Positions 12,531-62,502 of a DNA stretch of 64,000 nucleotides are shown here, piece after piece. Positions within the stretch are counted from its first letter, which is position 1. Every line of letters begins with the position of its first letter. Below the pieces are notes generated by a model, which saw only the letters and a list, made by a program, of their open reading frames with translations, was not told where the DNA came from and ran no database searches. A program made the position numbers and the translations under genes. This DNA comes from Nannocystis pusilla (GTDB taxonomy: Bacteria; Myxococcota_A; Polyangia; Nannocystales; Nannocystaceae), in NCBI RefSeq assembly GCF_049060185.1, contig NZ_JBMEQO010000002.1. One strand, 5' to 3'.

Positions 12531-12870
12531 CGGAAGACCTGGCTGATGGGGCAGGTCCTGGCCGTGGAGATATTCGCGCGGACGCGGTCGTCCGCCAGGG
12601 CCAGAAAAATCCTGGCTGATGGGCAGGCCCTGGTCGAGGGGACGTTCGCGCGGAGACGTTCGTCGGCGCGGCGCGGAAGACCTGGCTGAAGGGACATGTC
12701 CTGGCCGCGGAGATGTTCGCACGGACGCGGTCGTCCGCGGCCGCACCTGGTCGATGGGGCAGATCTTGTCCGCGGAGATATTCGCGCGGACGCGTTCGTC
12801 CGCGCGGCCCAGAAAAACCTGGTCGATGGGACAGGTCCGGCCCGCGGAGGCGACCGCGCGGGCGGATCTG
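12531..12870. repeat. Array of five tandem ~65-74-bp imperfect direct repeats, each carrying two short inverted repeats (GACCTG-N10-CAGGTC and GCGGACG-N4-CGTCCGC); the third unit contains GGGACATGTCC.
   Basis: Unit starts fall at about 12535, 12609, 12678, 12743 and 12816. The frames differ between units (see the differing translations in ORFs 9624..12689, 12619..13038 and 12410..12697), so the repeat is at the DNA level and non-coding. It lies between the stop of the lipoprotein gene (12885) and the start of the small acidic gene (12413). Confidence 0.85.
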
Positions 12871-12884
12871 GCCCTTAAGTCAGG

Positions 12885-13769
12885 TCAGACGGGGCAGCCG
12901 GGCTCGCCCATGTCGCAGCAGAGGCAGACGGAGGTGCCCATGTCGTCGCCGCAGAAGCCGTGGTCGTACAGGGTCATCATGGCGTCGCCGACCTCGGTAC
13001 ACTGGACGAAGCAGTCGAACTGCGACAGCTTGCCGTAGATGCAGGTGTTGAGGTTGGTGTCGTCCTCGCAGCTGGCGGGGTCGCTGTTCTCGCAGGGGGT
13101 GCCGGGGCCGTCGCCGCAGATGAACTCGACGGTCTTGCCGGTGTCGACGCAGCCGTAGGCGAAGTCGTAGCCGTCGAAGCTGCAGCTGTCCTTGGCGAGG
13201 TTGGGCTCGAGCACCCAGGTGGCGCCGTCGCAGCGGTAGACCTGGCTGCCCTCGGGGCCGCAGACCTCGGTCATCGTGCACCAGAACTGGCCGTTCTGGC
13301 AGTTCTCGGGCGGCGGCTGCTCGCCCATGCACTCGACGCCGCCGGTGGTGGTGCCCTCGCTGGTGTCAGTGGTCTCGGTGGTGCTCGCGGTCGACTCGGT
13401 GGTGGTCGTGGTCGAGCTGGTCTCCGGCAGCGTGGTCGACTCGGTGGTGCCGGGGCCGGTGGTGGTGGTCGGCTCGCTGGTCGAGGTCGGCTCGACGGTG
13501 GTGGTGCCGACGCTCGAGACCGTGGTGGTGTCCTCGACCGGACAGCAGGACAGGTCGTTCGGGTCGTCGGTGCAGTACTCGAAGCCGTCGTTGCAGTAGC
13601 AGGTCTCGCCTTCGAGGTACGAGTTGGGGTCGTCGCACACGAACTCGCCGGTGTCGGAGTCGGGGGTGTTCGTGGTGTTGCCGCCGCCGATGATGCAGGC
13701 CGACGCGAGCCCCAGGAGGGCCAGGAGCGCGATTTTGCGAGGTAAGCGAGCCATGGCGAAAAATGACAT
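12885..13769 (-). CDS. Secreted lipoprotein with a Thr-rich linker and a Cys-rich C-terminal domain.
   Basis: A signal peptide and lipobox (…LALLGLASAC) are followed by a long T/S/E/P-rich linker and many conserved Cys residues (…CMGEQPPPENCQNGQFWCTMTEVCGPEGSQVYRCDG…). The gene lies in a single frame. Confidence 0.75.
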   Translation of the reverse strand: MSFFAMARLPRKIALLALLGLASACIIGGGNTTNTPDSDTGEFVCDDPNSYLEGETCYCNDGFEYCTDDPNDLSCCPVEDTTTVSSVGTTTVEPTSTSEPTTTTGPGTTESTTLPETSSTTTTTESTASTTETTDTSEGTTTGGVECMGEQPPPENCQNGQFWCTMTEVCGPEGSQVYRCDGATWVLEPNLAKDSCSFDGYDFAYGCVDTGKTVEFICGDGPGTPCENSDPASCEDDTNLNTCIYGKLSQFDCFVQCTEVGDAMMTLYDHGFCGDDMGTSVCLCCDMGEPGCPV

Positions 13770-13785
13770 AAACCCGCGGGGCGCG

Positions 13786-14997
13786 TCAGGGCAATTTATC
13801 GCCCGTGTCGCACAGGAAGCGGAAGCTGTAGCCGCCCGGCTGGGGCAGGGCCTTGTAGCTCTTCACGCTGCCGTCCTGGTTCCACTGGTAGAGCATCGAG
13901 CAGCCCTCGCACGCCCCGAGCTCGTCGGGCTCGCCGCTGCCGACGGCGACATCGCTGACGAACCACGCCTGATCGTCGCCCGCGCGCCACTCGGGACAGT
14001 CGAGCCCGTTGAGCGGCGCGTCGACGCAGCTCTCGCCCGCGGTGACTGGATAGATCCCCAGGATCTGCAGGTAATCGGGGCCGGTCTTCACCGTGCCGCC
14101 GCCGACCGGCTCGAGGTTGTCGCCGGTGGCGACCTCGTAGGCGACGCCGAGGTGCGCCGCGCTGCGCGGGATGAACAGCTGCATGCCCCAGTCGGCGCAG
14201 GCGGCCTCGGCGGTGGCGGCGGTGGCCGGGTTGGGGTTCATGCCGCCGGCGACGTCGACCTTGAGGAAGGTGTAACCACCGCCGTCGACGGCCGGATCGA
14301 GGGCGCACCAGACGTCGATCGGGTCCATGATGCCTTCGCGGCGGACGCTGAAGACGCCGCTGACGGCCTCGGGAGCGGCCTCCAGCCACTCGAGGCAGCT
14401 GTGGGCGTACTTGCAGGTGGGCAGGCAGTCGGGGCCGTCCTCGCAGTCTTCGTTCTCGGGGTCGACCTGGCCGTCGCCGCAGCCGGGGGCGGCGGCGCTG
14501 CAGTCGGCGAGGCAGCTGCCGTAGGTGCCGTCGTTCGTGCCGTCGTCGCAGACCTCGCCGCCGTTGAGGACGCCGTCACCGCACCTGGGGAGGAGGCAGG
14601 CGGTGGTGCAGGCGCCGTCGTCGGCGTTGTCGGGGCCGAGGTCGCACTCCTCGGCGTCCTTGGCGACGAGGCCGTCGCCGCACGTGGCGTTGCGACAGTC
14701 GCTGGTGCAGGCGCCGTCGTCGGCGTTGTCGGGGCCGAGGTCGCACTGCTCGTCGGCGTCGACGAAGCCGTCGCCGCACACGGGCTCGCCCGTGGTGCCG
14801 GGCTCGCTGGTGGTCGGCTCGCCGGTGGTCGGCTCGGTCGCGGAGGCGCCGGTGGTGTCGACGCCGGTGGTGGTGCCGGGGCCGGTGCTCGCGGTCGACT
14901 CGGTCTCGGTGTTGGCGTTGGGGTCGAGGCAGGCCTGCAGGGCCAGGGCCGTGACGCTCAGTTGCAGCGAGATCCGGAGACGCGGCGCGGTGGGCAT
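13786..14997 (-). CDS. Secreted lipoprotein with Myxococcus-type Cys-rich repeats (CGDG…C(D/E)DGxxD) and a C-terminal globular domain.
   Basis: MPTAPRLRISLQLSVTALALQAC is a lipoprotein signal. Four CGDGxV…EECDLGPDNADDGAC-type repeats precede a C-terminal domain containing …DGGGYTFLKVDVAGG…. Confidence 0.75.
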   Translation of the reverse strand: MPTAPRLRISLQLSVTALALQACLDPNANTETESTASTGPGTTTGVDTTGASATEPTTGEPTTSEPGTTGEPVCGDGFVDADEQCDLGPDNADDGACTSDCRNATCGDGLVAKDAEECDLGPDNADDGACTTACLLPRCGDGVLNGGEVCDDGTNDGTYGSCLADCSAAAPGCGDGQVDPENEDCEDGPDCLPTCKYAHSCLEWLEAAPEAVSGVFSVRREGIMDPIDVWCALDPAVDGGGYTFLKVDVAGGMNPNPATAATAEAACADWGMQLFIPRSAAHLGVAYEVATGDNLEPVGGGTVKTGPDYLQILGIYPVTAGESCVDAPLNGLDCPEWRAGDDQAWFVSDVAVGSGEPDELGACEGCSMLYQWNQDGSVKSYKALPQPGGYSFRFLCDTGDKLP

Positions 14998-25632: not shown

Positions 25633-25928
25633 GGCTCGGAGGGCTGGGGGCGAGACGATGACAATGACGATTCCGAGGGCGTGCTCGGCGTCGGTGCCGT
25701 GATTGTCGTCATGGAGTTCGGGGCGACCGTGCTCGCGGGATACCCGATGAGTTGATATTCTGGTGGGGGAGAGAACTGCCGCGATGCTATATGCAATGGG
25801 CATCGGCATGCGCGAAAGGCCGAATGTCGATAGCTGGCAGAGGGATTCGTCGCTCGTGCTCGATCGGGATGACGGAGCTGCGGTAGGTGACGGCGGGGTG
25901 CAGCGCGCCGGCCGGGTGGAAGGACCGT

Positions 25929-26708
25929 CTAGCCGCTGCAGGGGCCGCCCTGGGCGACCCAGCCGTCCTGGCCGCAGACGTAGTACTGGAAGTTCTCGCC
26001 GCAGACCTGATGGCCGCATTCGGTGGCATACACGGTGTTGCCGAGGTGGTCCTTGCCGCCGGGGCAGTCGCAGCCGTCGTCGCCGCCGCAGACGCCGCCC
26101 TTGGCGACCCAGCCGTTCGGCTCGCAGGCGTAGTACTGGAAATTTTCGCCGCAGATCTGCTCGCCGCAGGTGGTCGCGTGCACGGTGTTGCCGAAATTGT
26201 CGGTGCCGTCGGGGCAGTCGCATTCGTCGCCGTCGTCGTCGCCGTCGCCGCAGACGCCGCCCTGGGAGACCCAGCCGTTTTGCCCGCAGACGTAGTAATG
26301 GAAGTCCTCGCCGCAGACCTGATGGCCGCAGTCGGTGGCGTTCACGGTGTTGCCGAGGTAGTCCTTGCCGCCGGGGCAATGACAGCCGTCGTCGCCGCCG
26401 CAGACGCCGCCTTGGGCGAGCCAGCCGCCCTGGCCGCAGACGTAGTACTGGAAGTCTTCGCCGCAGACCTGATAGCCGCAGACGTCGGTGTCCACAGGGT
26501 TGCCGAGGTGATCGGTGCCGCCGTCGCACGGACAGCCGCCGCCGTCGCGCAGGGCGATCGCGGACGCGTCGGCGCGAGCGGCTGGTTCGTCGTCGCAGGC
26601 CAGCGGGGCGAGCACGGAGGCGCTCAGCAGCAGGGCGGGGCCGAGGCGCGTGGCGGAGAGGAGACGGCGCGAGAGCGAGGCGTGAGGACGCGTGAACGGG
26701 ATGGACAT
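25929..26708 (-). CDS. Secreted Cys-rich protein made of four tandem ~45-aa repeats (CxCPGGKDxLGNTVxATxCGxQVCGExFQYYVCGQxGWxxQGGVCGGDDG).
   Basis: It has a signal peptide (MSIPFTRPHASLSRRLLSATRLGPALLLSASVLAPLAC) and four near-identical Cys-rich repeats, in a single frame. It is flanked on both sides by the ~75-bp structured repeat. Confidence 0.75.
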   Translation of the reverse strand: MSIPFTRPHASLSRRLLSATRLGPALLLSASVLAPLACDDEPAARADASAIALRDGGGCPCDGGTDHLGNPVDTDVCGYQVCGEDFQYYVCGQGGWLAQGGVCGGDDGCHCPGGKDYLGNTVNATDCGHQVCGEDFHYYVCGQNGWVSQGGVCGDGDDDGDECDCPDGTDNFGNTVHATTCGEQICGENFQYYACEPNGWVAKGGVCGGDDGCDCPGGKDHLGNTVYATECGHQVCGENFQYYVCGQDGWVAQGGPCSG

Positions 26709-26902: not shown

Positions 26903-27030
26903 GACAGTCAGGGCTGGCCGCCGACAGACGCGATTCACGATCCGGGCTGCGTGCGTCTGTCGGAGACGATCGTGTGAGGCTTCCACGATCCGGGCTGCGT
27001 GCGTCTGTCGGGGACGATCGTGCGAGGCGT
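26903..27030. repeat. Copy B of the ~75-bp structured repeat plus an adjacent ~48-bp partial tandem copy, lying upstream of the Cys-rich gene.
   Basis: The same element as 25556-25632 is here present 1.6 times in tandem; the partial copy repeats CACGATCCGGGCTGCGTGCGTCTGTCGGnGACGATCGTG. Confidence 0.75.
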
Positions 27031-27135
27031 CATGGCGCGAGGAGGCAGGCGGCGATGATGAGGATTCCGGCGACGGAGGCTCGCGTCTGCGGTGCCGTGA
27101 TTCCGGCGGTCGGAGCTCGAGGGCGTGAGCCGGGT

Positions 27136-29097: not shown

Positions 29098-29690
29098 GGA
29101 GATGTCCCGGGGGACATGTCTTCCGGGACGGGGGCCGAGGTGGTCGGAGCAGCTGTCTCGTCGGAGGCGGGCGGCGGGGCGGTAGGGCCGGCTGTCCCCG
29201 AGGACATGTCTTCGCGGGTGGACGAGGGCTGGGACGATGTCCCTGGGGACAGGTGCGCGACGAGGGCCGGCGGGGCTGTGGCGGCTGTCCCGGGGGACAG
29301 GTGCTCGGAGGCGGGCGACGAGGCGGCTGGGGCCGAGGATCCAGAGGATATCCCTGGGGACAGGTTCGCGGCGAGGACCGGCGGGGAGGTGGTGGCTGTC
29401 CCGGGGGACAGATGCTCGGAGACGTGCGGCGGTGCGGCTGCGGCCGCGAGCAGGAGGGCTGGCCCTGAGGACAGGTACGCAGGGACGGGCGGGGCCGCGG
29501 ACAGGACGGATGCCCGCGGGGACAGGTGCACGGCGGCGGGCGGCGGGGCGGACGGTGTGACGGTCGGGGCCGCGGTCAGGATGGATGTCCGCGGGGACAG
29601 GTGCACGGCGGCGGGCGGCGGGGGGTCGGGGTCGGGGAAGCCGACGCGGGTGTCCTTTCGGGCATGTCACCCGAGACATGTCCCGAGGGT
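29098..29690. repeat. Array of about 10 imperfect tandem units (period ~45-90 bp), each built on the palindrome (G/A)TGTCC(C)-N2-3-GGGGACAGGTG; the first two and last units carry GGACATGTC variants.
   Basis: Units start at about 29101, 29190, 29237, 29283, 29348, 29395, 29461, 29508, 29583 and 29649. The array sits in the divergent region between the PAP2 start (29023, minus) and the next plus-strand gene (29942). Stop-free ORFs on both strands (HLSPGT…/…VPGDRC…) are a consequence of the repeats. Confidence 0.85.
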
Positions 29691-48114: not shown

Positions 48115-48300
48115 GCGATCTGTCCGCAGGGACAGGTGACGGGCGGAGGCTGTCCGCGAGGACAGGTGAATTCCGACTGTCCGCGGGGACAGGTGGAGAT
48201 GGCGCGTCCGCGAGGTCGAGGTTCCGGCTGTCCGATAGGGCAGGTTGGAATCGGGTGTCCGTGGGGACAGGTAGGCTGTCCGTGGGGACAGGTGCGTCGA
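48115..48300. repeat. Tight tandem array of about 7 copies (period ~20-30 bp) of the palindromic unit (C)TGTCCGNGGGGACAGGTG.
   Basis: Units lie at 48121, 48151, 48178, 48229, 48257 and 48277, plus a degenerate copy at about 48205. Each is an inverted repeat TGTCC-N5-GGACA followed by GGTG. Because of the array, the plus-strand ORF reads CPxGQV hexapeptide repeats and the minus strand HLSPRT repeats. Confidence 0.85.
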
Positions 48301-49196
48301 CGGGCAGGGACAGCGGGGCCGGCTCCGGCGCGGCGTCGTGGCCGTGGGCGGCCAGGCCCGGGGCCAGCTCGGCCGACAGGGTGCCGCGGCGGGCGTCGGC
48401 CCAGCGGCCGGGGCGGGGCCTTGCAAGGTGTCGCCGGGCTCGGGAGCGGCGAGCGGAGAAGTGCTGTCCCTCAGGACAGGTCGCACGGGGGCCGGGACGG
48501 CGGGCGGCGGGGCCGGGCCGATCGAGAGCAGGGTGGTCGGCGGGACGGGAGCGGCGAGCAGCCTGGCCGAGGGGCCGGGCTGGTGGCGGGCGTGGAGCCG
48601 CGGGCTCGGCGGCGGGGCCTCGAGGTCGGGTTCGGGGCTGACCTTCGGGACAGGTGCGCTGTGGACCAGGTCGCTGACTGCCTGCTGGATCGCCCGCTCG
48701 TAGAGGGCCAGGGCGTCGGCGACGGCCGGCGGCAAGCCGTGGGGCTGCCGGCACGCAGGGCAGTCGGCGGCGTCGCGGAGGTCGGCGAGCGAGAGCGCGT
48801 GCTGGCAATGCGGGCAGCGCAACGCGAGCGTCGGAGAGAGCACGGCGGGACCATACCGCAGAACACGGGCGGCGCACCGGCCTGCGGGCGCGGGCGTGGG
48901 CGCGCAGGCGGAGGGAGCGGCCGGGGATGACGACAGCCGGCGTCGGCGGCGAGATCGCCGAGCGGGCTCGTCGGTGGCGCGACGGTGCCGAGCGCGGTCG
49001 AGATCGCGGCCGGGCGCGTGACGAGATCGACAGGGACGGGCGGTGACGGCGGTCCGCGAGCGGAGGACGGGGCGGGACGCAGTTCGTGGCCACGGCCCGG
49101 CGGCGGCGCTCTGCGAGCGCTGGCGGCCCGGGGCCACGAATCGGTCGCAGGCGGCGCCGGGCGCGGGCGAGGATGCGCGCGGCGGCGACTCGCGGT

Positions 49197-51853
49197 ATGA
49201 GGAGGCGCCGCGCGCGACCGGCGGGCGGCGAGCTTACCGTGCCCGATCTGCCCGTCTCGCCTCCTTCGCCCCGCGGCCTCGATCTCCCCGGCGCCGCCAC
49301 TCAATTCGCGCCGCTCGTCGACGAGCGGCTGGCCAACGGCGCCCGCCTGTTGATCCTGCCGGGGCGACCGGCCGGCGCGGGGCCGGCGGCGGTGCAGCTG
49401 TGGGTCGGCTCGGGCACGGCCGCCGAGCGGGAGGACGAGCACGGCTGCGCCCACCTGCTCGAGCACATGCTCTTCAAGCCATGTGTTTTGGGACATGGCC
49501 CGAAGAGCAACCGCGCGCGCCTGGCGGCGGCCGGGGTGCGGCGGACCGAGGAGGCGTTCGACCTGGCGGGCGCGATCGAGGCGCTCGGCGGCGACATCAA
49601 CGCGTTCACCAGCCACGACGAGACGGTGGTCCACGTGACGACGCCGGCGGCCCGCGCGGCCGAGGCGGCGGCGCTGGTGGCCACCGCGACGCTGTTCCCG
49701 ACGCTCGACCCGGCCACTCTGGGGCAGGAGCGCGAGGTGGTGATCGAGGAGATCAAGCAGTACGACGACGACCCTGGCCAGCGGGTGACGCAGGCGGCGC
49801 TGTCGCGGGTGTACGGGGCGCACGCGTACGCGCGGCCGGTGCTCGGCCTGGCGGAGGAGGTCGCGGGGCACTCGGCGGCGCGACTACGCGGGTATCACCG
49901 GCGGGCCTACGCGGGCGAGCGGCTGACTCTGGTGGCGGTCGGGGCGGTCGACGTGGCGGCGCTGCGCAAGGTGGCGCGGGCGATCGTCGGCGCCCTGCCG
50001 GCGGCCAAGGGGCGCGCGAAGGCGGGCGAGCCGGCGGCGAAGCCGGGGTGACGCTGCGCCGCGCCGAGGTCCAGGAGACCTACGCGCTGCTGGCCTGGCC
50101 GGCCCCGGCGGCGGGCGCGGCGGAAGCGGCGGCGATCGACGCGGCGGCGGTGGTGCTCGGCAACGGGGAGTCGTCGCGCCTGGTCGCCGAGACACGTCGC
50201 AAAGAACAGGTCGTTTCGGACATCCAGGCCCACTGCGACACGCTGCGGCACGGCGGCACGGTGATGGTGTCGGCGCGCACGACCGCGAACCAGACGGCGG
50301 CGGCGGTGGCGGCGGTGCTGGCCCAGGTGCGGCGGCTGGCGGACGCGCCGGTGTCGACCGAGGAGCTGGCGCGGGCCAAGGCGATCCTCGAGAGCGACCT
50401 GGTGTACCGGCGCGAGACGGTGCAGGGCCAGGCGCACGCGCTCGGGGCCTGCGCGACGCTGTTCGGCGACCTGGCCCGCGAGCGCGAGTACTACGCGGCC
50501 CTGGCGGCGCTGACGCCCGAGGCGGTCCGCTCGGCCTGCGCCCGCTGGCTCGACCCGGCGCGCGCGAGCGTCAGCCTGGAGCTGCCGCGCGCGGAGGTGG
50601 ATGTCCCAACGGCCAGGTCGCTCAAGGCCGCGGTGGCCGAGGCGCTGAAGCCGGCGCCGACGCCGGGGCGCGCCGGGGCGACGCCGCGGCGGGCCAGCGA
50701 CGGCATCGAGACGGTGACGCTGGCGTGCGGGCTGCGCCTGCTGGCGCGCGTCGAGCCGGCGGTGCCGGTGGCGGCGGGCTGGCTGATCTGGCCGGGCGGG
50801 CTGCGGCGCGAGCCGGCGGCGCTGGCCGGCGCGAACTCGGTGATCGCGGCGCTGCTCACCCGCGGCAACGCCCGCACCGGCGGCGAGGCGCTGAGCCGGG
50901 CGATCGACGGGATGGCCGCGGGGCTCGACGGCTTCGCCGGGCGCAACAGCCTGGGCCTGCACTTCGAGTGCCTGAGCCGCCACTTCCCGGCGGTGCTCGG
51001 GCACGCGCTCGACTGCGCGACCACGCCGAAGTTCGCGGCCGACGAGCTCGAGGAGGAGCGGCGGGTGGCGCTGCAGGATCTGGCGGCCGAGGTCGACGAT
51101 CCGGGCGCGGTGGCCAGCCGCGGGCTGAACGCGCTGCTGTACGGCGAGCACCCGTTCAGCCGCCCGGGCCGCGGCACGCCGGCCGGGCTGCGGGCGCTGA
51201 CGCCGGCCAAGCTGCGCGGGCTGTGGCGCCGCGACTACCCGATCGGGCAGGCGGTGCTGGCCCTGGCCGGCGACATCGACGTGGCGGCCGCGGCGGCCCA
51301 GGTCGAGGCGGCGCTGCGTGAGGCTGGCCTCGGGGACAGGCTGTCTGAAGGGCCAGGTGCGCCGAAGAAGTTCGCGGCGCCGACCGGGCCGCGCGAGCGC
51401 GAGATCTTCCAGGACCGCGAGCAGGCCCACATCGCCCTCGGCTGGCCGGGCATCGCCGTCGGCGACGAGCGCGAGCCGACCCTCGACGTGCTCAGCGCGG
51501 TGCTCGGCGGGCAGACCGGGCGCCTGTTCACGGCGCTGCGCGAGGTCCAGGGGCTGGTGTACGAGGTGTCGATGAGCAGCGTCGAGGGCCTCGACGCCGG
51601 CCACGTGGCGATCCACGCGTCGACGAGCCAAGACAAGCTGCCGAAGGCGATGGCCGCGATCGCGGCGGAGGTCGAGCGTGCGGTGCGAGAGCCGCCGTCG
51701 GCGGCGGAGGTCGAGCGGGCCAAGGCGTGGCTGGTCGGCCAGTTCGAGCTCGGCCAGCAGCGCCGCAGCCGGATGGCGTCGCTGCTGGCGCTGTCCGAGG
51801 TCTACGGGCTGCCGCGCGCGCGTTCGCGTACCCGCAGCGGGTGGCGGCGGTGA
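49197..51853 (+). CDS. M16-family (pitrilysin-like) zinc metallopeptidase with tandem two-half architecture, carrying one or two frameshifts.
   Basis: The inverted zinc motif HLLEHMLFK sits in ORF 49086.., followed by the typical M16 fold sequence (…GGDINAFTSHDETV…). The second M16-like half lies in ORF 49043..51853 (…RLLARVEPAVPVAAGWLIWPGG…). A 22-bp palindrome (49488-49509) lies just after the zinc motif and encodes an extra CVLGHGP. Confidence 0.8.
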
Positions 51854-52011
51854 CCGCCGAGGGGTTTGGGCGCTGGCGAGGACGCTGTTCCGCCCGCAAC
51901 GCGCGGCCCGCTGCGTGGTCCGGGCGCGCCGGCGCAAGGGCTGAGCCTGGGCCTGTCCTTCGAGGCATGTGGCGAGTGCCATGTCCTCGAGGACATGGCA
52001 CTCGGGCCAAG

Positions 52012-52488
52012 TCATTCGTCGTCGTCCGGATCGGCGGCGGGCTCGGCGACCGAGCGCGCGCCGGCGACCGTGAGGTACTCGTCGCGGTCGCGCAGGCGGT
52101 CGACCCGCAGGTCGCCGCCGACGTAGAACTCGGTCTCGAAGATGGCGAGCTCGCGGGCGACCAGGTCGCCGAGGACGATGGCGCACATCAGCCGGTCGGA
52201 CACGCAGAGGTCGCCGCGCACGGTGAGGCTGCCGGTGACGACGATGGTGCCGATGTCGTCGGGGGCGGCGGCGAGCTGCAGCTGCGACCAGTGCTCGTCG
52301 CCGAACCAGGCGTCGCCCTCGACGGTGAGGTCGCCCTCGTAGACGGCGCAGGCGCAGCCGTAGCGGCCGCCCGAGGCGAGGCGGGCGAAGGTGCCGTGGC
52401 GGCGATCGAGCTCGGCTTCGCTGATGACGACAGGCTTCAGCACGCGGCGAGTCTGGCACGCGGCGGGGGCGCTGTCATGGGGGGACAT
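52012..52488 (-). CDS. Hypothetical protein.
   Basis: MSPHDSAPAACQTRRVLKPVVISEAELDRRHGTFARLASGGRYGCACAVYEGDLTVEGDAWFGDEHWSQ…DPDDDE is a clean frame, protein-like, with an acidic tail. The start ATG lies inside GCCATGTCCCC and is preceded by GACATGTTTCATAAAACATGTTCAT. Confidence 0.5.
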   Translation of the reverse strand: MSPHDSAPAACQTRRVLKPVVISEAELDRRHGTFARLASGGRYGCACAVYEGDLTVEGDAWFGDEHWSQLQLAAAPDDIGTIVVTGSLTVRGDLCVSDRLMCAIVLGDLVARELAIFETEFYVGGDLRVDRLRDRDEYLTVAGARSVAEPAADPDDDE

Positions 52489-53006: not shown

Positions 53007-53622
53007 ATGCCGGGGCGACGGATCGACGCGTGGATGTTGCTGGGGCTGCTGCTGGGCGGGTGCGACCCGGCGAAGGAGAGGAGCTGGCGGCGGTGCGGGC
53101 GGAGCTGGCGGCGACGTCGGCGCTGGTCAAGGAGCAGGGGCAGCGGATCGAGTCGCTGACGAGCGAGCTGGCGAAGGCGCGGGCCGATCGGGTCCTGTGC
53201 GAGGTCGAACGGTCTCCGCCGCATGGGGCCGGCGACGCTCCGCCAGCGCCGGCGACGGACGCTCCGCTCGCAGGAGCGGCGACGCTGACGCCGACGTGCG
53301 CCGACGGGACCTGCGTGGTGAAGCGCAGCGAGCTCGAGGCGTTCATGGCGGCGCCCCAGGCGATGGCCCGGCTGGCGCGCGTGCTCCCGGCGATGGAAGA
53401 CGGCAAGGCGGTCGGCTTCAAGCTGTTTGCGATCCGCTCCGAGTCGCCGCTGGCGCTGCTGGGTTTTAAAATGGGGACCTGGTGCGCACCCTGGCCGGGC
53501 AAGCGGTGGGGGACATGGAGGCGTTGCTGCGCGCGTACTCGCAGCTGCGCACGCTCGACCGCTGGACGGTCACAGGCACGCGCAAGAGCGGGCCGTTCGA
53601 GGTGACGATCGCGGTGCAGTGA
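53007..53622 (+). CDS. Lipoprotein with a coiled-coil region and a C-terminal PDZ-like domain (GspC/PilP-like), with two frameshifts.
   Basis: MPGRRIDAWMLLGLLLGGC is a lipoprotein signal. A coiled-coil region follows (…LAAVRAELAATSALVKEQGQRIESLTSELAKARAD…), then a PDZ-like domain (…GKAVGFKLFAIRSESPLALLGFKMGDLVRTLAGQAVGDMEALL…GPFEVTIAVQ). Confidence 0.5.
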
Positions 53623-53714
53623 AGACTGTCCGAAGGGACAGGTGCGTGCGACGGGCCGTTCGGGGTGACGATCTCGGCACCATGAGAAGACTGTCCGAAG
53701 GGACAGGTGCGTGG
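53590..53714. repeat. Tandem duplication (2 x ~62 bp) covering the 3' end and stop codon of the preceding gene; each copy ends in the palindrome GACTGTCCGAAGGGACAGGTG.
   Basis: gggccgttcgaggtgacgatcgcggtgcagtgaagactgtccgaagggacaggtgcgtg is immediately followed by gggccgttcggggtgacgatctcggcaccatgagaagactgtccgaagggacaggtgcgtg. Confidence 0.8.
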
Positions 53715-53925: not shown

Positions 53926-53948
53926 GCTGCCGTGCGCGGGCTCCACGG

Positions 53949-54400
53949 TTACATCCCGCGCCGGTAGTAGACGAGCTGCAGCGCGAGGCGGGCGAGCTCC
54001 GACAGGTACAGCGACAGCAGCAACAGGTGGGCGACCCACACCGGCTCGACCGCGACGACGAGGGCGCCGATGGCCCCGATCACGCCGGTGGCGAGGATCC
54101 AGCCGGTGCGGCTCTCTGCGCGCCCCTCGATCTCGCGGTCGCGGACGTCGGCCGGCTCGGGGCGGCCGACGAGCGCGGCGACGAGGTGACCGCCGACGAG
54201 GAGCGCCACCAGCAGCACGACTGCGACCACGAACACGCCGGCGAAGGCCGGCAAAATCGTGATACCGCGGGCCAGCATCCAGCCGGCGACGACGAAGTAG
54301 GCGCCCAGCGCGAAGGCGACGCCGATCAGCTGGATCCAGACGCTCTTCTCCTCGAACGAGGCGCTCAAGCGCGCCTCACCCGTGACAGCTCGGCTTGACA
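53949..54400 (-). CDS. DUF2975-like multi-pass membrane protein, partner of the XRE regulator.
   Basis: MSSRAVTGEARLSASFEEKSVWIQLIGVAFALGAYFVVAGWMLARGITILPAFAGVFVVAVVLLVALLVGGHLVAAL… contains about four TM helices. Gene order is the same as the Bacillus yozG-yoaS-type pairs. Confidence 0.6.
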
Positions 54401-54452
54401 TGATGTCAAAGATACGCGACACGGACACGATGTCAAGCTGGCTTGACATGAC
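54385..54452. promoter_or_regulatory. Two palindromic candidate operator sites (TTGACATGATGTCAA and TGTCAAGCTGGCTTGACA) at and upstream of the membrane/XRE operon start.
   Basis: In gcttgacatgatgtcaaagatacgcgacacggacacgatgtcaagctggcttgacatgacg, the first palindrome overlaps the ATG of the membrane protein gene. The shared half-site is TTGACA/TGTCAA. Confidence 0.55.
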
Positions 54453-54750
54453 GGGCCAGAACGTGGCGGAACACCTGGCCTGCAGGCGCTGGCGTCGATC
54501 GGGGGCGATGCGCGAGGACGCGCGGGCGCCGGAGCGTTGTGGCGGGGACCACACGGATCTGCTCCAGGTTCGCGAGCGGGCGCGGTCGAGCGCGGGGCAC
54601 CGCGGGCGAGCACGCCGCTCGCGCCGAGAAGCGCTGCTGCGCGAAGAGACCCGCGCGCCCGAGAGGCACGGGCGTCGACCTCGCATGTCTGCGAGGACAT
54701 ATACAAGGACATGTCCTTGTGGACATGTCCTGATGGACAGTGCTCGCGAC

Positions 54751-56529
54751 TCAGGCGGCGGAGGCGACGCCGAGGGTGCGGGCGAGGGCGCGGGCGACTG
54801 CGAGGGGCGGCCCTTGAACACGCGGACGTACGGGATGGCGCTGGCCCGGGCGGCGCGGGCGAGGATGCCGTCGATATTGTGGGCCTGGAAGCCGGTGGCG
54901 ATCAGCACGTAGTCGTAGCTGTGGCGCGAGATGCTCTCGCACTGGGCCTGGACCTTGCGGGCGTTGCCGTCGCACCAGGTGATGTCGAGGCCGAGCGACT
55001 CCTCGAGCTTCGACTTGAGGTCGGGGTCTTCGCGGTTGCTGACGAACAGGACCCGCTTGCCCTCCACCTTGGGCCGGACCTGGGCGACCAGGTGCGCGCC
55101 CGGATCGTCGACGTCGTCGGTCTCTTCCTCGAGCTCGCTGTCGCTGTCGGACGGCAGCACGCCGAGCTCGCCGCGCTTGATCACGTCCTGCAGGCCGGTG
55201 AGGCGGCGACGCATGCGGCGGTCCTCGAACAGGTCGGGGCGCAGGGCGTCGATGCGCGGGCGGATCGGCTGGACCAGCGACGCGACCTCGGGCGTGTTGT
55301 GGGCGTCGAAGGCCCGGCCGAGGAAGGCGAGCAGGGCCTCGTCGTCGAAGCTGTCGGCGGCGACCAGGGCGTCGCGTTCGGCTCGCACCGTCGCTTGCTG
55401 CTGGCGCACCTGATCGGCCGAGGGCCCGGTCTTGGCGCGCTCGGGCGGCGGGATGAACTCGGGGTCGAGCCAGCGGCGCAGCTGCGGCAGGCGCTCGCCG
55501 AGGCGCCCCGCGAGCCAGCGCAGGCGGCCCATGACGGCGCCCCAGGTCTCGGGGTCCTCGGCGGCGATGAAGCGACGGATGTCGCGCAGCGCCTGCGCGT
55601 GCTTGACGAGGGCGTCGAGCTGCTCGTTCGGCAGCTCCTCCGGCGGCGTGGTGAGGTGGCGCGGCGGCGGGTCGGTGACGTTGCCGGCGATGGCCTCGAC
55701 GGCGCGCTGGGCCTCGCGCAGGAGGGCGCGGGGCTGGCCCGGCGGGGCCTTGCGCGGGCGGTCGGCCCAGCCGTAGTCGTCGACCGGGACCTCGCTGGTC
55801 ATCGCTCGCTCGCGATGGTTCTGCACGAACTCGTGCGCCTCGGCCCAGGTCTTCGGCGCGTGCAGCGTCTTGAGCCCGAGCTCGGTGACCACGCACGCGG
55901 GCACCGCGTTCATCTGCAGCGCCTGCACCGAGCCGGGCCACAAGGTCTTGCTGAGGTTCGTCAGCTCGTGGGCGATCCGCCGCACCAGCACGGTGATCTT
56001 GTGCTCACCCTGGAACTGCTCGTCGAAGCTGCGCGCGCGGAGATCCACGCCAGCATGTAGACCTTCTGATAGCGCGGCGACATCAGCGCGAAGTCGGGCC
56101 GCATGTCCTGGATGTCCTTGAGGATCTCTTCCAGGGTCTCGCGCGCCTCGGCGACCGCAGCAGCGGGATAAGTCGGTAGCTGGATCCGTCCGACGATCGG
56201 GCTGCGCGGTAGCTCGGGCTGCTCGGGCGCGGCGGGCGGGGCGGTGGGGATAACTTCGGCGGATACTGCGGCGCTGGGTGGCGCCGCCTGCGGACGGGCT
56301 GGCTCCTGGAGGCCGTCGCGGAAGCGATCGAAGAGCTGACGCGCGGCCGCCGACGAAACATCTGCGTCAGCGCATCTTCGAGGGCGCTGTCGCGGTCGGG
56401 TCCGCGGCCGAGCCACCGCTCCGTGTCGCGCCAGATCAGCACCTCGGTCCACTGATGGGTATACATCGCGTGGCGGTAGCCGCTGTCCGCGAGAAACTTG
56501 GGTAGCCAGCGCGCGCCGTCGTCGTGCAT
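54751..56529 (-). CDS. Hypothetical protein with a C-terminal DUF2325-like domain, carrying two or three frameshifts.
   Basis: The protein spans ORFs 56083..56529 (MHDDGARWLPKFLADSGYRHAMYTHQWTEVLIWRDTERWLG…), 55961..56659 and 53949..56048 (…KRVLFVSNREDPDLKSKLEESLGLDITWCDGNARKVQAQCESISRHSYDYVLIATGFQAHNIDGILARAARASAIPYVRVFKGRP…). Coding is consistent across them. Confidence 0.5.
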
Positions 56530-58598: not shown

Positions 58599-60010
58599 AG
58601 TCGTTCGTCCCGCTCGTCCACACCGATCCCGTGGCGCTCGTCGCCGTCGGCGAGGCCGGCGCACGCACGGCCGGCGAGCTCATGCGCGACGCGAGGGCCG
58701 TCGCGGCGCGGCTGCCGGCGCCCGCGCCAGGCAGCGAGGTGCTGGTGGTGTGCGGCGACCGCTACCACCTGGCGGTGACGACCCTGGCGGCGTGGCTGCG
58801 CGGCCACGCGGTCGCGCTGCCGCCCAACGCCCAGCCGGCGGCCGTGCGCGAGCTGGCCGGGCGGCCGTCGGTGGTCGCGCTGCTGCACGACTCCGACCTG
58901 GCCGACGCGCAGGACGTCCGCGAGTGGTTGGAAGGACATGTTCCAGGGACATGGCCGATCCGACATGGCCCGAAGCGCTGGCGGCCGATCGCCGGCTGGC
59001 GGTCGTGTACACCTCGGGCAGCACCGGCGATCACCAGCCGTGCGCCAAGACGGCCGCGCAGCTGCTCGGCGAGGCGCAGGCGCTGGCGGCCACGTTCGCC
59101 CTGCGGGCCGGGGAGGTGGCGCTGGCGACGGTGCCGCCGTACCACCTCTACGGGCTGCTGTTCGGGATCCTGGCGCCGCTGGCCGCGGGGCGGCGTTCGC
59201 CCGCGAGACGCCGCTGCACGCCGAGACGGTGGCCCGGGCGGCGCGGCAGGTGGAGGCGACGGTGCTGGTGAGCACGCCGGCGCACCTGCGCGGCCTGACT
59301 GTGCTGACGCGCGGCGACCTGCCGCCGCTGTCGCGGGTGTTCTCGTCGGGCGCGCCGCTGCCGCGGGCGACCGCGGACGAGCTGCTGACGAAGCTGGGCC
59401 TGCAGGTGACCGAGGTGTACGGTTCGTCGGAGACCGGCGGGATCGGCTGGCGGCGGCACGAGGATGTTTTAAAGACATGTCCCCGGAGCCAGCCTGGACG
59501 CCGCTGCCGGGAGTGACTGTGGAGGTGGCGGCAGAGGGCCGGCTGCTGCTGCGCTCGCCGTTCCTGGCCCCGGACGCGCCGGTGCCGTACCCGTGCGAGG
59601 ACCGCGTCGAGGTCGACGCGCGCGGCGGGTTCCACCTGCGCGGGCGGCTCGATGGGGTGGTGAAGATCGCCGGCAAGCGGGTGGCGGTGGCCGAGGTCGA
59701 GCAGCGCCTGCTGGCGCTGCCGGCGGTGGCCGACGCCGCGGTGGTGGCGGTCGAGTCGCCGGGCGCCCGCGGGCACGAGCTGGTGGCCGCAGTGGTCGCG
59801 CGCGAGGCCGGGCGCGACGCCGGCGAGCTGGTGGCCGAGCTGCGGCGGGCGCTGCTGCCGTGGTTCGACCAGGTGGTGGTGCCGCGGCGGATCAAGGTGG
59901 TGCCGGCGCTGCCGCGCGAGCCGAGCGGCAAGCTGACGCGGCGCAAGCTGCACGCGCTGCTCGGGCTCGCGGGCGAAGAGGAAGTCGCGGCGGGTGGCCC
60001 GAGGGACATG
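58595..60010 (+). CDS. AMP-dependent synthetase/ligase (acyl-ACP/CoA ligase-like), with a frameshift at about 58940; in this assembly no stop codon separates it from the following dehydratase domain.
   Basis: The N-terminus MKSFVPLVHTDPVALVAV… is followed by the AMP-binding motif LAVVYTSGSTGDHQPCAK and conserved A-domain core motifs (…YGSSETGGIGW…, …GKLTRRKL). The frames of ORF 58157..60616 and ORF 58750..59271 are joined by a 1-nt shift inside a GGACATG-rich stretch. Confidence 0.75.
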
Positions 60011-60129
60011 TCCGTAAGTTCGGCGAGTGACGCGCCGAGCGCGGGATCGGGACCGGGTGACGCACGGGACATGTCCGCCGGGACAGAGGGCCCGGGCGCG
60101 TCGGTGAGTGGCCCCAGGGACATGTCCGC

Positions 60130-60505
60130 AGGGGCAGAGGGCCCGGGCGCGTCGGCGTTCGCGCTGCGCGGGCATACGCGGCGCGACGAGGGCGGCGCGT
60201 CGGTGCACGAGGTCGAGGTGGGGGTGCCGGTCGACCTGGCGTTCTTCCGCGGGCACTTCGACGCGCTGCCGGTGCTGCCGGGGGTGGCGCAGCTGACCGC
60301 TCTGGTAGTGCCGCAGGTGGCGGCGCTGCGGCCGGAGCTGGGGCCGCTGCGGCGGGCGGCGCGGCTGAAGTTCACCCGGCCGATCGCGCCGGGCGACGCC
60401 CTGCTGCTGCGGCTCGAGGTCCGGGGACTCAGGTCCGCTTCTCCCTGGCGCGGGCCGGCGAGGTGGTCACGGCGGGGGCGCTCGAGTACGAGGCGCGCGG
60501 AGGCT
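60130..60505 (+). CDS. Hot-dog-fold (FabA/FabZ-like) dehydratase domain or protein, with a frameshift at about 60435.
   Basis: …VHEVEVGVPVDLAFFRGHFDALPVLPGVAQLTALVVPQVAAL…RLKFTRPIAPGDALLLRLEV… matches the 3-hydroxyacyl-ACP dehydratase hot-dog signature. The true C-terminus (…FSLARAGEVVTAGALEYEARGG*) is reached after a 1-nt shift. Confidence 0.6.
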
Positions 60506-60635
60506 GAGGCGGTGCGTATGGCCGAAGGGGCAGGTCGTTGCCAGGTGTCCGGGAGGACAGGTCGTCCGCCGACGGGCGGCGGGCCGGATGCGCCCCGCGT
60601 CGGGAGGCGGGCATGAGCGCGGACGGGGGCAGGAC

Positions 60636-61425
60636 ATGTCCCGAGGGACAGGTGAAGCCGGGGCCGCGGCGTTCCGGCCGTGCGCGCTGATCCCGACCTT
60701 CGACAACCCGCGGACGGTGCGGGACGTGGTGCTGCGGGTCAAGGCGCACCTGCCCGACGTGGTGGTCATCGACGACGGCTCGGGGCCGGAGGGCCGCGCC
60801 GCGGTCGAGGCGATCGGGGCGGAGGGGCTGGCGCACGTGCGGCGACGGCCGCAAAACGGCGGCAAGGGGCGGCGGTCAAGACCGGGTTCCAGTTCGCCCA
60901 CGAGCTCGGCTACACCCACGCGCTGCAGGTCGACGCCGACGGGCAACATGACCTCAAGGACATCCCGCAATCCTCGCCACCGCGCGCGAGCGGCCGAACG
61001 CGCTGATCCTCGGGGCGCCGGTGTACGACGCGTCGGCGCCGAAGGGGCGGCTCATCGCCCGCAAGATCACGCTGTTCTGGACCAACTTCGAGGCCGGTCG
61101 CGGGGTCATCACCGACCCGATGTGCGGCTTCCGCGTGTACCCGCTGGTGCCCGCGCTGGCGCTCGGGCGCACCGGCGACCGCATGGACTTCGACATCGAG
61201 ATCGCGGTCCGCCTGGTGTGGGCCGGGGTGCCGGTGATCAACCTGCCCACCAAGGTCCGCTACATCGGCCGCGACGAGGGCGGGGTGTCGCACTTCCGCG
61301 TGTTCGGCGACAACGTCAAGATCTCGTGGCTGCACACCCGGCTGTCGTTCCAGCGGGTGATGGTGCGCCCGTGGATCAACCTCTACCGCCGCCTGCGCCG
61401 CCCGGCGCTGCCGGCCGGCCGCTGA
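60636..61425 (+). CDS. Family-2 glycosyltransferase, with a frameshift at about 60870.
   Basis: …CALIPTFDNPRTVRDVVLRVKAHLPDVVVIDDGSGPEGRAAVE… and (other frame) …HALQVDADGQHDL… then …ITDPMCGFRVYPL… are GT2 (DxD, Q/RxxRW-like) hallmarks. The candidate start ATG lies at the centre of a GGACATGTCC palindrome. Confidence 0.7.
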
Positions 61426-61458
61426 CCGGGCTGCGCGAGAGGACAGGTTCGATCGGCC

Positions 61459-62502
61459 ATGGCGCATCAGGCAGGTACGAAGGGACATGTCCCGGAGGAC
61501 GACCCGAGCGGGGCCGCGGCGAGCGAGCGCGGGGCGGGCGTGCCGGCGACCACCGCGGGTCAGGGGAGCGAGCGTGAGGCGGGCGGCGCCGCGGCGGTCC
61601 CGGCGGTCGAGGGCGACCGGGCGTGGATGACCCGGCCCGAACGCGGGACGGTGATCGGGATCAAGGCGACGCTGCTGTTCTGCCGGGTGTTCGGCCGCCG
61701 CGGGGCGGGTGCTGCTGGCGGTGATCACCTTCTACTACGCGCTGTTCGCCGGGGCGGCGCGGCGGGCCTCGCAGGACTACCTGCGGCGGATCGGCCAGCC
61801 ACACGGCTTTGGGCCAGCTGGCGCCACATCTACACGTTCGCCCGCTGCGCGCTCGACCGCGTGTTCCTGGTCCGCGGCGAGACCTCGCGGTTCCGCATCA
61901 CGCACACGGGCATCGAGCACCTGCGGGCGCTGCAGCAGCAGGGCCGAGGGGCGCTGCTGCTCGGGGCCCACCTCGGCTCGTTCGAGGCGATGCGGGCCAG
62001 CAGCGTCGACAAGCGGCTGCCGATCCACATCCTCGCGTACTGGCAGAACGCGAAGATGATCAACGACTTCTTGCGCACGGTCGGGGCCGACTTCGACGTG
62101 CGCGTGATCCCGATCGACCCGCGCGACACCAGCTACATCCTGGCCGCCAAGGAGGCGATCGAGCGCGGCGAGCTGGTGGCGGTGCTCGGCGACCGGGTCG
62201 GGGTCAACGAGAAGACCTGCACGGCCGAGTTCCTGGGCGCTCCGGCGCGCTTCCCGACCGGGCCCTACACCCTGGCGGCGCTGCTAAAGTGCCCGATCTA
62301 TTTGACTTTCGGGCTCTACCACGGGCCTGACCGCTACGATCTGTATTGCGAGCCCTTCGCCGAACAATTAGAACTCCCCAGAGGCCGCCGCGAGGCCGCC
62401 ACCGCCGCCCATGTCCAGCGCTACGCCGAACGCCTCGAGCACTACTGCCGCCTCGCGCCGCTCAACTGGTTCAACTTCTACGAGTTCTGGAGGGCAGAGT
62501 GA
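61459..62502 (+). CDS. LpxL/HtrB-like lysophospholipid acyltransferase (LPLAT), with a frameshift at about 61700-61800.
   Basis: …FRITHTGIEHLRALQQQGRGALLLGAHLGSFEAMR… (with the HxxxxD-like region) continues to …VAVLGDRVGVNEK…FLGAPARFPTGPYTLAALLKCPIYLTFGLY…. This is the typical acyltransferase of aryl-polyene/flexirubin-type clusters. Confidence 0.75.
   Translation: MAHQAGTKGHVPEDDPSGAAASERGAGVPATTAGQGSEREAGGAAAVPAVEGDRAWMTRPERGTVIGIKATLLFCRVFGRRGAGAAGGDHLLLRAVRRGGAAGLAGLPAADRPATRLWASWRHIYTFARCALDRVFLVRGETSRFRITHTGIEHLRALQQQGRGALLLGAHLGSFEAMRASSVDKRLPIHILAYWQNAKMINDFLRTVGADFDVRVIPIDPRDTSYILAAKEAIERGELVAVLGDRVGVNEKTCTAEFLGAPARFPTGPYTLAALLKCPIYLTFGLYHGPDRYDLYCEPFAEQLELPRGRREAATAAHVQRYAERLEHYCRLAPLNWFNFYEFWRAE

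Follow-up and report, generated by a model that had tools for sequence, protein, structure and literature searches.

A short palindromic hairpin repeated through Nannocystis genomes and concentrated at gene 3′ ends

What kind of element is a short palindrome that recurs again and again along one stretch of bacterial DNA? The question is raised by 64,000 nucleotides of a Nannocystis pusilla contig (NZ_JBMEQO010000002.1; hereafter the window, meaning the whole stretch that was analysed), in which an earlier inspection of the letters, here called the sequence-only reading, had picked out a palindrome family built on TGTCC and GGACA. It had likened the family to repetitive extragenic palindromic (REP) sequences with their mosaic clusters (bacterial interspersed mosaic elements, BIMEs) or to miniature inverted-repeat transposable elements (MITEs), and alternatively to the operator of an abundant dimeric regulator. 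We find a stem-loop of 24 nucleotides (nt) that belongs to the genus as a whole, lies mostly just beyond stop codons, and probably acts there.

The palindrome family is strongly over-represented in the window, as had been claimed, whether judged by shuffles, by Markov models or by the ranking of 8-mers, the top of which is occupied by motif words. The decamer GGACATGTCC occurs nine times exactly (at 12692, 45516, 54707, 54721, 60004, 60067, 60118, 60632 and 61483) against an expectation of 0.07 from dinucleotide shuffles, none of 100 of which attained nine; on both strands the count is 18, against 0.27 under an order-3 and 3.8 under an order-5 Markov model, both fitted to the window. Similarly, GACATGTC is observed 15 times against 0.84 expected. 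There are 21 exact copies of TGTCC-N4-GGACA, rising only to 22 when spacers of 0-8 are allowed (the extra one has a spacer of 6), and to 46 when up to one mismatch is tolerated. All of the GGACATGTCC coordinates listed earlier were confirmed with shifts of 8 nt or less, as were the two arrays (about 10 copies at 29098-29690 and 6-7 at 48121-48290), and the 22-bp palindrome reported at 51978-51999 is in fact a perfect 30-bp palindrome at 51974-52003. Of the listed single copies several prove degenerate, with one mismatch each at 51325, 50602 and 16674; the copy near 20590 is degenerate by eye, and that near 47290, with three mismatches, is doubtful. Two other descriptions of these words were tried and set aside. 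The word GGACAGGT has a strand ratio of 25:2 in the window, largely because of non-independent copies in two minus-strand genes together with a positive GC skew, but its orientations are equal (18:18) in other genomes, which rules out a strand-biased word of the Chi or KOPS kind; and a GGTG 'dialect' private to this genome is ruled out because N. exedens and N. punicea have it in their orthologous regions, both flank types (TGT and GGT) being present in every species compared.

The excess reaches far beyond the window. A scan of one genome per species (185,579 species) with the pattern GGACATGTCC-N4-GGACATGTCC, which specifies 20 bases, returned 103 stretches, 100 of them in Nannocystis or in metagenome-assembled genomes (MAGs) of Nannocystaceae or Myxococcales; the three from other lineages are at about chance level. 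The Nannocystis matches come from N. exedens, N. pusilla, N. punicea, N. bainbridge, N. radixulma, RBIL2 and MAGs, with sites all along the chromosomes. The hairpin family is confined to the genus Nannocystis and spread through whole genomes. Because the same words are found genome-wide in at least seven named Nannocystis species, local segmental duplication is excluded as the source of the excess, and neither of the two outcomes that the sequence-only reading had named as fatal to it, a genome-wide frequency no higher than expected or a purely local duplication, was found. The sole viral match to the 24-mer (8925-8948 of L108, an IMG/VR contig) is a coding tandem duplication, TCTCGGACATGTCC twice over, in a contig of 66% GC with no further motif copies, and is probably a coincidence. 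Nothing in the window matches an Rfam 15 family at the gathering threshold.

The spacing between the two halves of the unit is close to invariant. Across 8-kb tiles, TGTCC and GGACA are separated by 4 nt in 229 cases and by 2, 3, 5 or 6 nt in 0-3 cases each. When up to three mismatches per arm and five in total are tolerated, 934 kb of Nannocystis DNA yields 472 such relaxed double decamers with a spacer of 4 and only 2-12 with any one of the other spacers between 0 and 12. DNA that the pattern had not selected, namely the window and those parts of the tiles that lie over 500 nt away from a selected copy, contains 0.23 and 0.33 of them per kb respectively, which extrapolates to roughly 3,000-4,000 copies per genome of 12-13 Mb, mostly degenerate, with perfect 24-mers accounting for only 6-21.

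Since the decamer is self-complementary, two copies placed 4 nt apart give a 10-bp stem with a 4-nt loop. The unit consists of two such decamers, or of just their inner TGTCC and GGACA halves, often as the GGT flank variant. Three lines of evidence identify the stem-loop, and not the single decamer, as the unit. First, the flanks of the two arms covary: positions -1 and +1 are complementary in 61%, and -2 and +2 in 50%, of 102-103 copies, against 30-31% in controls, through G-C, A-T, C-G and T-A pairs that lengthen the stem, and the covariation score of 0.132 (compared with 0.076 +/- 0.007) is reached by none of 500 shuffles. Secondly, the loop is unpaired, and the palindrome of an individual decamer does not continue into the adjoining bases (28% and 21% against 26%). 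Thirdly, variants whose arms are no longer palindromic retain the inverted repeat, as at 51974-52003 and in GACATGCTC-tttg-GAGCATGTC from an unselected convergent spacer; at 51974-52003 a compensatory C-G to A-T exchange relative to N. pusilla CP185339 leaves the stem paired. Nearly all apparently single decamers turn out to have a partner, now decayed, in the 14-nt register. The folds of full copies in the window have energies between -30 and -33 kcal/mol (z -4.8 to -5.8), and where tested this holds for both strands.

These features bear on whether the sites are instead double-stranded DNA targets of an abundant dimeric protein, be it a global regulator at its operators, a nucleoid-associated protein or a roadblock to RNA polymerase between convergent genes. 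A pair of dimers would then occupy two decamers set 14 bp from each other. Such a protein would account for arms that are each a perfect 10-bp palindrome, for a two-fold symmetric duplex, for the rigid 14-bp centre-to-centre distance, for a sequence that is itself common to all copies, and for the frequency of direct-repeat variants that break the pairing. However, symmetry and covariation centre on the loop and not on the decamer, pairing is preserved by the inverted repeats of non-palindromic arms and by the compensatory change, and many copies consist of the inner 5+5 hairpin only. Taken with the distribution among spacers given below, we consider this explanation improbable.

Little else about the unit is fixed. 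The loops are essentially random in sequence, hardly any two being alike even within a genome, and no sequence outside the stems is shared among the 103 perfect copies, with the exception of a mild enrichment of A at positions -1 to -3 and of T at +1 to +3 (33%, 46% and 29%). A target-site duplication was looked for among the same copies and the loop equals the 3′ flank in 3 of 103 and the 5′ flank in 1 of 103. The comparison with MITEs could thus not be sustained: the unit is only 24 nt long, against 50-500 bp for MITEs, lacks a target-site duplication and has nothing conserved past its stems.

Comparison of strains indicates that the arms are held while their surroundings change. Over shared regions, the window has an identity of 94-97% with N. 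pusilla CP185339 and of 88-95% with N. exedens DSM 71; divergence between the two N. pusilla strains amounts to 4.4% overall and to 7.2% in intergenic calls. For 16 strict hairpins, picked in the window only and compared with CP185339, divergence is 5.6% in the inner stems, 12% in the outer arms, 16% in the 20-nt flanks and 23% in the loops (stem versus loop p = 4e-4, stem versus flank p = 2e-4), so that the inner stems diverge 3-4 times more slowly than loops and flanks. The units thus lie in fast-evolving DNA and their arms are nonetheless maintained. An apparently perfect conservation of stems between tiles selected by the pattern was set aside, as both members of each pair had been preselected for perfect stems.

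Where the units lie was determined with genes called by our own codon-usage caller, which reproduced 11 of 12 deposited genes at one locus. Although the DNA is 84% coding, 95 of 102 perfect copies are intergenic, 60 of them in convergent, 30 in tandem and 2 in divergent spacers; convergent spacers make up 26% of all spacers and hold 63% of the copies (p = 4e-14), and the divergent share of 2/95 is correspondingly low (p = 7e-9). The nearest stop codon is at a median distance of 15 nt, and within 60 nt for 85 of 93 perfect copies. In tandem spacers all 30 copies are closer to the upstream stop (median 17.5 nt) than to the next start (median 248 nt). Among unselected copies the density of strict units falls from 2.44 per kb in convergent spacers to 0.54 in tandem spacers, 0.29 in divergent spacers and 0.11 in coding DNA. 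A unit with no more than one mismatch is present in 56% of unselected convergent spacers, and 17 of the 26 perfect hairpins of at least 8 bp found there are the motif or its xxCATGxx variants. Composite arrays with repeat units of 72-150 nt, each bearing a hairpin, are found at 12507-12849 of the window and in the stretches L021, L045/L086 and L067. The concentration at gene 3′ ends, chiefly between convergent genes, which the sequence-only reading had suspected, is apparent from these spacer counts and stop distances, and its comparison with REP sequences and BIMEs agrees with the extragenic over-representation and the composite arrays. The operator idea fails, as the divergent spacers, which contain the promoters, hold just the 2 of 95 copies, and the copies that had seemed unusually dense at 58.9-61.5 kb lie in a domain linker and N-terminal tails, plus one short spacer.

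The same distribution speaks to the possibility that the family is a functionless by-product of mutation or repair, for example of methyltransferase-linked short-patch repair at a CATG-centred site, with the word purged from constrained sequence and accumulating in spacers and disordered linkers. The model here is the palindrome HIP1 (GCGATCGC) of cyanobacteria, a lineage-specific, hyper-abundant 8-mer found at similar density in genes and spacers. Both are short, lineage-specific palindromes of coding and non-coding DNA; in addition, the Nannocystis family is mostly degenerate, its coding copies lie where constraint is weakest, and its units come and go via clustered substitutions. HIP1, in contrast, is not known to have a fixed two-copy hairpin comparable to the 24-nt stem-loop, and a bias of this kind predicts neither the exact 4-nt spacing, the two-arm unit and the stem-extending covariation of the flanks, nor an 8-fold excess in convergent spacers relative to divergent ones, which are equally non-coding; coding density, moreover, is about 20-fold below that of convergent spacers. 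We think it quite unlikely that such a bias is the explanation.

A second comparison is with DNA uptake sequences (DUS) and uptake signal sequences (USS), inverted pairs of which are terminators in Neisseria and the Pasteurellaceae (Kingsford et al. 2007, as cited in PMC3152330). These share with the Nannocystis decamer a conserved 10-mer, lineage specificity and close inverted pairs after genes, and differ in not being self-palindromic and in being sharply conserved, abundant in genes, with a density of about 1 per kb that includes coding DNA, and tied to competence. Uptake sequences whose inverted pairs double as terminators would account for a lineage-specific 10-mer with TGT and GGT flank 'dialects' and for paired hairpins after genes; but the exact decamer occurs only 11 times in 660 kb of coding DNA and the family is mostly degenerate, and we give this possibility very little credence.

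Among unselected copies, roughly one in four to one in three nevertheless lies within a gene, and these are instructive. The array at 29098-29690, which had been taken for a divergent promoter region, is in fact the coding N-terminal linker of a PAP2 phosphatase. In five other Nannocystis genomes the homologues carry the same words (DMSPGT, DLSSGT, GHVPEDMS) in linkers that vary in length. The window has about 10 units, whereas N. pusilla CP185339 and N. exedens have 3-4, and Tandem Repeats Finder reports tandem duplications with periods of 111 and 75 nt. The array at 48115-48300 is likewise a coding linker, its orthologue in N. exedens lying within a called gene with a different copy number; compared with CP185339, its unit cores are better conserved than its spacers. 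In the linker of a fusion protein (59995-60136), clustered multi-base replacements create and destroy units between the two N. pusilla strains. Over all loci, the 101 coding copies lie in sequence rich in P, A, G, S and T (share 0.52 versus 0.40) and with a low coding score (0.20 against an average of 0.49), and they are read in two frames, with hardly any in the third, which would require TGT and GGA codons. This frame preference is a codon-usage filter and carries no peptide-level signal. A peptide motif HLSPxT was at first entertained, as both arrays seemed to be read in one frame, and rejected when the N. exedens call was found to read the 48-kb array as PVPxDS; the same DNA unit is read variously as HLSPGT, PVPxDS, GHVPxDMS and TCPxGHV. 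That the same words recur in the PAP2 homologues and the AMP-ligase linker might suggest selection on a peptide repeat (DMSxGT, HLSPGT), or an artefact of chance or local duplication. The differing frames, the mostly intergenic copies and the spread over whole genomes of many species refute this, and its probability is negligible.

The nearest parallel for such coding copies is provided by the Rickettsia palindromic elements, which are 100-150 bp long, insert in frame into genes and behave as discrete insertions. In both cases palindromic repeats are tolerated in genes and add peptide in permissive regions, whereas the Nannocystis units are of 14-24 nt and form arrays in disordered linkers, with no clean insertion event seen. 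One such event had been proposed at 49488-49509 (+), where the palindrome GCCATGT-N8-ACATGGC in the coding region of an M16 peptidase gene was taken for an in-frame insertion. N. exedens and the second N. pusilla strain have the palindrome in identical form and N. punicea in nearly identical form; it is an old, fixed feature and not a recent insertion. Its membership of the family is doubtful or ancient, and as its spacer is not the canonical 4 nt it is not counted as evidence of insertion. Between the two N. pusilla strains, no hairpin-sized insertion or deletion was found in about 34 kb of alignment, apart from the length of the PAP2 tandem array.

How the copies arose is a partly separate matter. 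They could be non-autonomous elements of the REP or REPIN (REP doublet) type, copied by a single-copy REP-associated tyrosine transposase (RAYT, a Y1 HUH enzyme) that recognises the hairpin in single-stranded DNA, in which case the 3′-end position would mark the sites that tolerate insertion. As an account of origin, this does not conflict with a function at 3′ ends. The short extragenic palindromes, their genus-specific and vertical distribution and the BIME-like composite arrays are what such copying would leave behind, and a conserved stem implies a sequence-specific partner. Copy turnover is also high: orthologous spacers of different species have units at differing positions within the same spacer, and the clustered replacements that write and erase units separate strains just 4% apart. 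There is, however, no REPIN master-sequence population, which would show as near-identical copies, abundant 16-mers and REP doublets with a conserved spacer; instead, loops are nearly all different and perfect copies are less than 1% of the family; the conserved stem is just 10 nt per arm with no conserved adjoining tag; the strain alignment is without presence/absence differences of hairpin size other than that array length; and the share of unselected copies that lie in genes is unusual for REPs. A search for YxxxNPV, a RAYT-like signature, was empty over 0.95 Mb of sampled DNA, a sample far too small for this to be more than a very weak negative. We regard RAYT-driven copying as an unlikely, though not a negligible, origin.

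The reading that we favour, with moderate confidence, is that of a REP/TRIT-like hairpin family (TRIT being a mycobacterial hairpin family described below) that acts at transcript 3′ ends, a function that we infer from position and structure. It is preferred because position, symmetry between the two strands, stem-extending covariation and conservation of the arms all coincide. The hairpin would form in transcripts of both strands, and would act either as a bidirectional terminator poor in U-tracts or as a barrier to 3′ exonucleases after termination. The REPs of enterobacteria and the TRIT hairpins of mycobacteria probably work in one of these ways, and known REPs can stabilise upstream mRNA. 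The invariant, two-fold symmetric stem would be read by a dedicated factor, probably dimeric, while copies would persist in unconstrained DNA such as disordered linkers and N-terminal tails, in frames set by codon usage; slippage or tandem duplication between units may then have built the arrays at 29.1-29.7 and 48.1-48.3 kb. Of the two hallmarks of a canonical intrinsic terminator, the GC-rich hairpin near the gene end is present, as seen from the folds and the median distance of 15 nt past the stop.

Several observations weigh against this assignment. First, the second hallmark, a U-tract of about 7-9 nt, is lacking, the T-rich segment after the stem being only about 3 nt long; the UUGUAUAU tail after the stem of the 54707 copy is an exception. 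Secondly, a hairpin read as RNA should tolerate G-U over A-C mismatches, and the asymmetry between them is not significant where the sense strand is defined; the asymmetry seen in convergent spacers is probably spurious and due to non-independent array units. Thirdly, single 5-bp units fold no better than shuffled sequence, and direct-repeat variants such as GGACATGCCC-N4-GGACATGCCC, in which pairing is weakened, are as common as compensated ones; changes in one arm are compensated in the partner and copied to the partner each at about twice the baseline. Fourthly, the 103 perfect copies were chosen by the search pattern, and the position statistics of unselected copies agree in direction and are weaker; the gene caller, too, was checked at one locus only. 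Fifthly, a canonical terminator stands between the stop codon and the array in L045 and L086, so the repeats are not needed for termination there. Lastly, structure alone leaves unexplained why thousands of copies share one stem sequence and why the arms are self-palindromic; a two-fold symmetric stem common to so many copies requires a sequence-specific partner or a copying process.

Canonical terminators are thus present in the genus. In L045 (1510-1560) and L086 (5360-5405) a stem AATCGGAGCAGCG...CGCTGCTCCGATT followed by TTTGTTTT lies directly after a stop codon and precedes a 400-nt array of hairpin-bearing repeat units, which indicates that classical terminators exist in Nannocystis and can coexist with the repeat. 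A consensus terminator scan of 44-64 kb of the window found no excess of canonical U-tract terminators over chance.

A more specific proposal, which we put forward only tentatively, is that a Nannocystis-specific homodimer reads the GGACAUGUCC stem, as RNA or as extruded or single-stranded DNA, and so defines 3′ ends between convergent genes in a genome where U-tract terminators are largely lacking, and that this machinery or a linked copying process other than RAYT keeps writing new units into unconstrained DNA, a mutational origin for the disordered DMSxGT, GHVPxDMS and PVPxDS peptide repeats of proteins.

Among described systems the closest parallel is the TRIT family of Mycobacterium (Gardner et al. 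2011, PMC3152330), with 147 copies located around position -8 relative to the stop codon. TRITs are restricted to their genus, conserved in sequence and structure, mostly bidirectional and tied to gene ends; they account for most of the highly structured gene-terminus regions in a GC-rich genome poor in canonical terminators, and their authors proposed a stem-binding factor (PMC3152330). The Nannocystis hairpin likewise is a genus-restricted, conserved and mostly bidirectional hairpin at gene termini, and we assign the two to the same functional class without homology. Their sequences are unrelated, and the Nannocystis family differs in having thousands of mostly degenerate copies at a median of 15 nt past the stop, self-palindromic arms, a loop of strictly 4 nt and many copies in coding linkers; termination activity is putative in both. 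With REPs, BIMEs and REPIN-RAYT systems (as defined in PMC3116915, PMC3337134 and PMC5581495) the family shares extragenic short palindromes, often after genes, mosaic clusters, lineage specificity and vertical inheritance. It differs in that its conserved part is 2 x 10 nt with a 4-nt loop and not a doublet of REPs of 20-40 nt, in the absence of a master-sequence population, and in its frequent coding copies.

Within the window the best example of the unit is at 54686-54739, where the perfect hairpin GGACATGTCC-TTGT-GGACATGTCC at 54707-54730 has degenerate or partial units on either side (members that lie between genes are given here without a strand). This hairpin begins about 21 nt past the true stop (~54751-54753) of a minus-strand DUF2325-like gene, is followed on that transcript by its UUGUAUAU tail, and folds as RNA at -32.9 kcal/mol (z -4.8). 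The perfect 30-bp palindrome at 51974-52003, GAGTGCCATGTCC-TCGA-GGACATGGCACTC, has a 13-bp stem and a 4-nt loop and lies in the convergent spacer between the M16 peptidase gene (+) and a gene at 52012-52443 (-); its two strands fold at -32.6 and -30.3 kcal/mol (z -5.8). The 210-nt convergent spacer between an S41 peptidase gene (+, stop 45445-45447) and a short-chain dehydrogenase gene (-) contains three double units, all degenerate (45471-45494, 45516-45539 and 45606-45629); the orthologous spacer of N. exedens is not alignable in detail, yet has motif variants. Two single hairpins CTGTCCGAAGGGACAGGTG at 53626-53644 and 53691-53709 (within 53589-53713), the first beginning 4 nt past a stop codon, are part of a 65-bp tandem duplication in a convergent spacer and are conserved in N. 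pusilla CP185339. The composite BIME-like array at 12507-12849 is a 72-nt tandem repeat of 4.9 copies in the spacer between two minus-strand genes, with a decamer-like word in each unit, that at 12692-12701 being perfect. A further degenerate double unit, TGTTATGTCC-CGAG-AGACATGTCG, is at 33993-34016.

The coding members are led by the PAP2 linker array (29098-29690, -), in which about 10 units encode a low-complexity N-terminal linker of HLSPGT and DMSPGT words behind a signal peptide at ~29800. The array at 48121-48290 (-) comprises 6-7 units of CTGTCC-N4-GGACAGGTG and encodes PVPxDS words in the disordered middle of a hypothetical protein of ~620 amino acids (aa), the gene for which contains two more single units, at 48465-48478 (exact) and 48639-48652 (one mismatch). 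The linker between the AMP-ligase and ApeI-like dehydratase parts of the fusion protein (59995-60136, +) has three units, each read as RDMSxG(T/A), and degenerate units at 58934-58970 (+) fall in the AMP-ligase coding region, where the intact orthologue has EGHVSGDMADPTWP. Within 60546-60650 (+), one unit (60546-60559) lies in the short spacer after the fusion gene, and a decamer with its hairpin (60632-60650) lies at or just within the start of a glycosyltransferase gene; a further decamer (61483-61497, +) encodes GHVPED in the N-terminal tail of a lipid-A-type acyltransferase. In N. punicea the called start of the glycosyltransferase (L107 ~4990-5766; window 60588-60650) is the ATG of the motif itself (MSAGT...), and the N. 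pusilla CP185339 call begins 8 codons upstream (MSADGGQDMSRGT...), a difference which suggests that the repeat may supply or shift start codons. These genes belong to an aryl-polyene/flexirubin-like cluster (57.6-64 kb), collinear in N. pusilla CP185339 and N. punicea, whose products include an acyl carrier protein, the AMP-ligase/ApeI-like dehydratase fusion, a family-2 glycosyltransferase, the lipid-A-type acyltransferase, an aromatic ammonia-lyase, a 4HBT thioesterase, a LolA-like protein and an MMPL transporter.

Other repeats and rearrangements were noted in the window. A second group of over-represented 8-mers (GTTGCCGT/ACGGCAAC and TTGCCGTC/GACGGCAA; 14-15 observed against ~2 expected) stems from genes (9813-11705 (-), 14545-14779 and 25925-26523) that are made of tandem repeats, of 93-99 nt and 150 nt, in which Cys and Asp codons abound, and that probably encode cysteine-rich repeat proteins with no relation to the hairpin family. 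A perfect 48-nt tandem duplication at 26936-27028 (95% match) and a 24-nt segment at 27104 are absent from CP185339; these are minor length polymorphisms with no relation to the motif. Some 13.7 kb (~29.9-43.5 kb) separate the PAP2 gene from the TetR/S41 genes, to which it is directly adjacent in N. exedens. At least part of this interval is shared by CP185339, where the stretch L105 has Cu-oxidase, CBS, P-type ATPase and MFS genes next to PAP2 and can be aligned to 29.6-31.3 and 34.1-37.3 kb. The interval is an insertion or a rearrangement between the species.

The window also lacks about 20 single bases relative to CP185339, nearly all in runs of G or C (e.g. 20592, 20605, 23037, 23285, 54803, 58945 and ~60420). 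As a result, genes that are intact in relatives are split here, with the S41 peptidase in three pieces, the M16 peptidase in two, the AMP-ligase fusion in more than three, and a TPR protein of ~3,200 aa also broken. These losses look like long-read consensus error rather than gene decay. Motif copies had been thought to coincide with frameshift points; those at 58930 and 20590 turn out to be homopolymer deletions beside G-rich loops, the former a loss of 1 nt from a G run. One such deletion, of 1 nt near 54803, carries the DUF2325-like gene past its stop and through the hairpin array into the downstream membrane-protein gene. The resulting open reading frame (ORF) at 53949-56048 (-) is 100% identical to a deposited 699-aa 'hypothetical protein [Nannocystis pusilla]', which is a chimera, homologues covering just its first 59%; together with the PAP2 phosphatase, this ORF identifies the window as N. 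pusilla.

The sequence-only reading had also held that elements of the REP/BIME or MITE kind were not known from myxobacteria, and within the searchable full-text literature no description of the family was retrieved, whether through Nannocystis palindromes, repeats or intergenic elements or through the decamer itself, the only matches to the decamer being papers on p53, for which GGACATGTCC is coincidentally also a half-site consensus. The family thus appears to be undescribed, the kind of element, a lineage-specific extragenic hairpin at gene ends, being well known. What sets it apart are its self-palindromic arms, a loop fixed in length and free in sequence, the large and degenerate family and its prominence in disordered linkers.

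Myxobacteria have very GC-rich genomes of 10-13 Mb and, to our knowledge, the way in which their transcripts end is poorly understood. With a copy at more than half of the unselected convergent junctions sampled, the hairpin could offer a direct handle on 3′-end formation in Nannocystis, and it could serve as a ready-made part for engineering this source of natural products. It is also a comparative case, beside the mycobacterial TRIT and the enterobacterial REP, for asking why lineages fix one hairpin and which protein reads it. In annotation, the repeat accounts for odd peptide repeats and variable-length linkers in Nannocystis proteins, and flags ORFs wrongly fused across spacers in error-prone assemblies. 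Its spill-over into linkers is an instance of a DNA-level repeat shaping the sequence and length of proteins between close strains.

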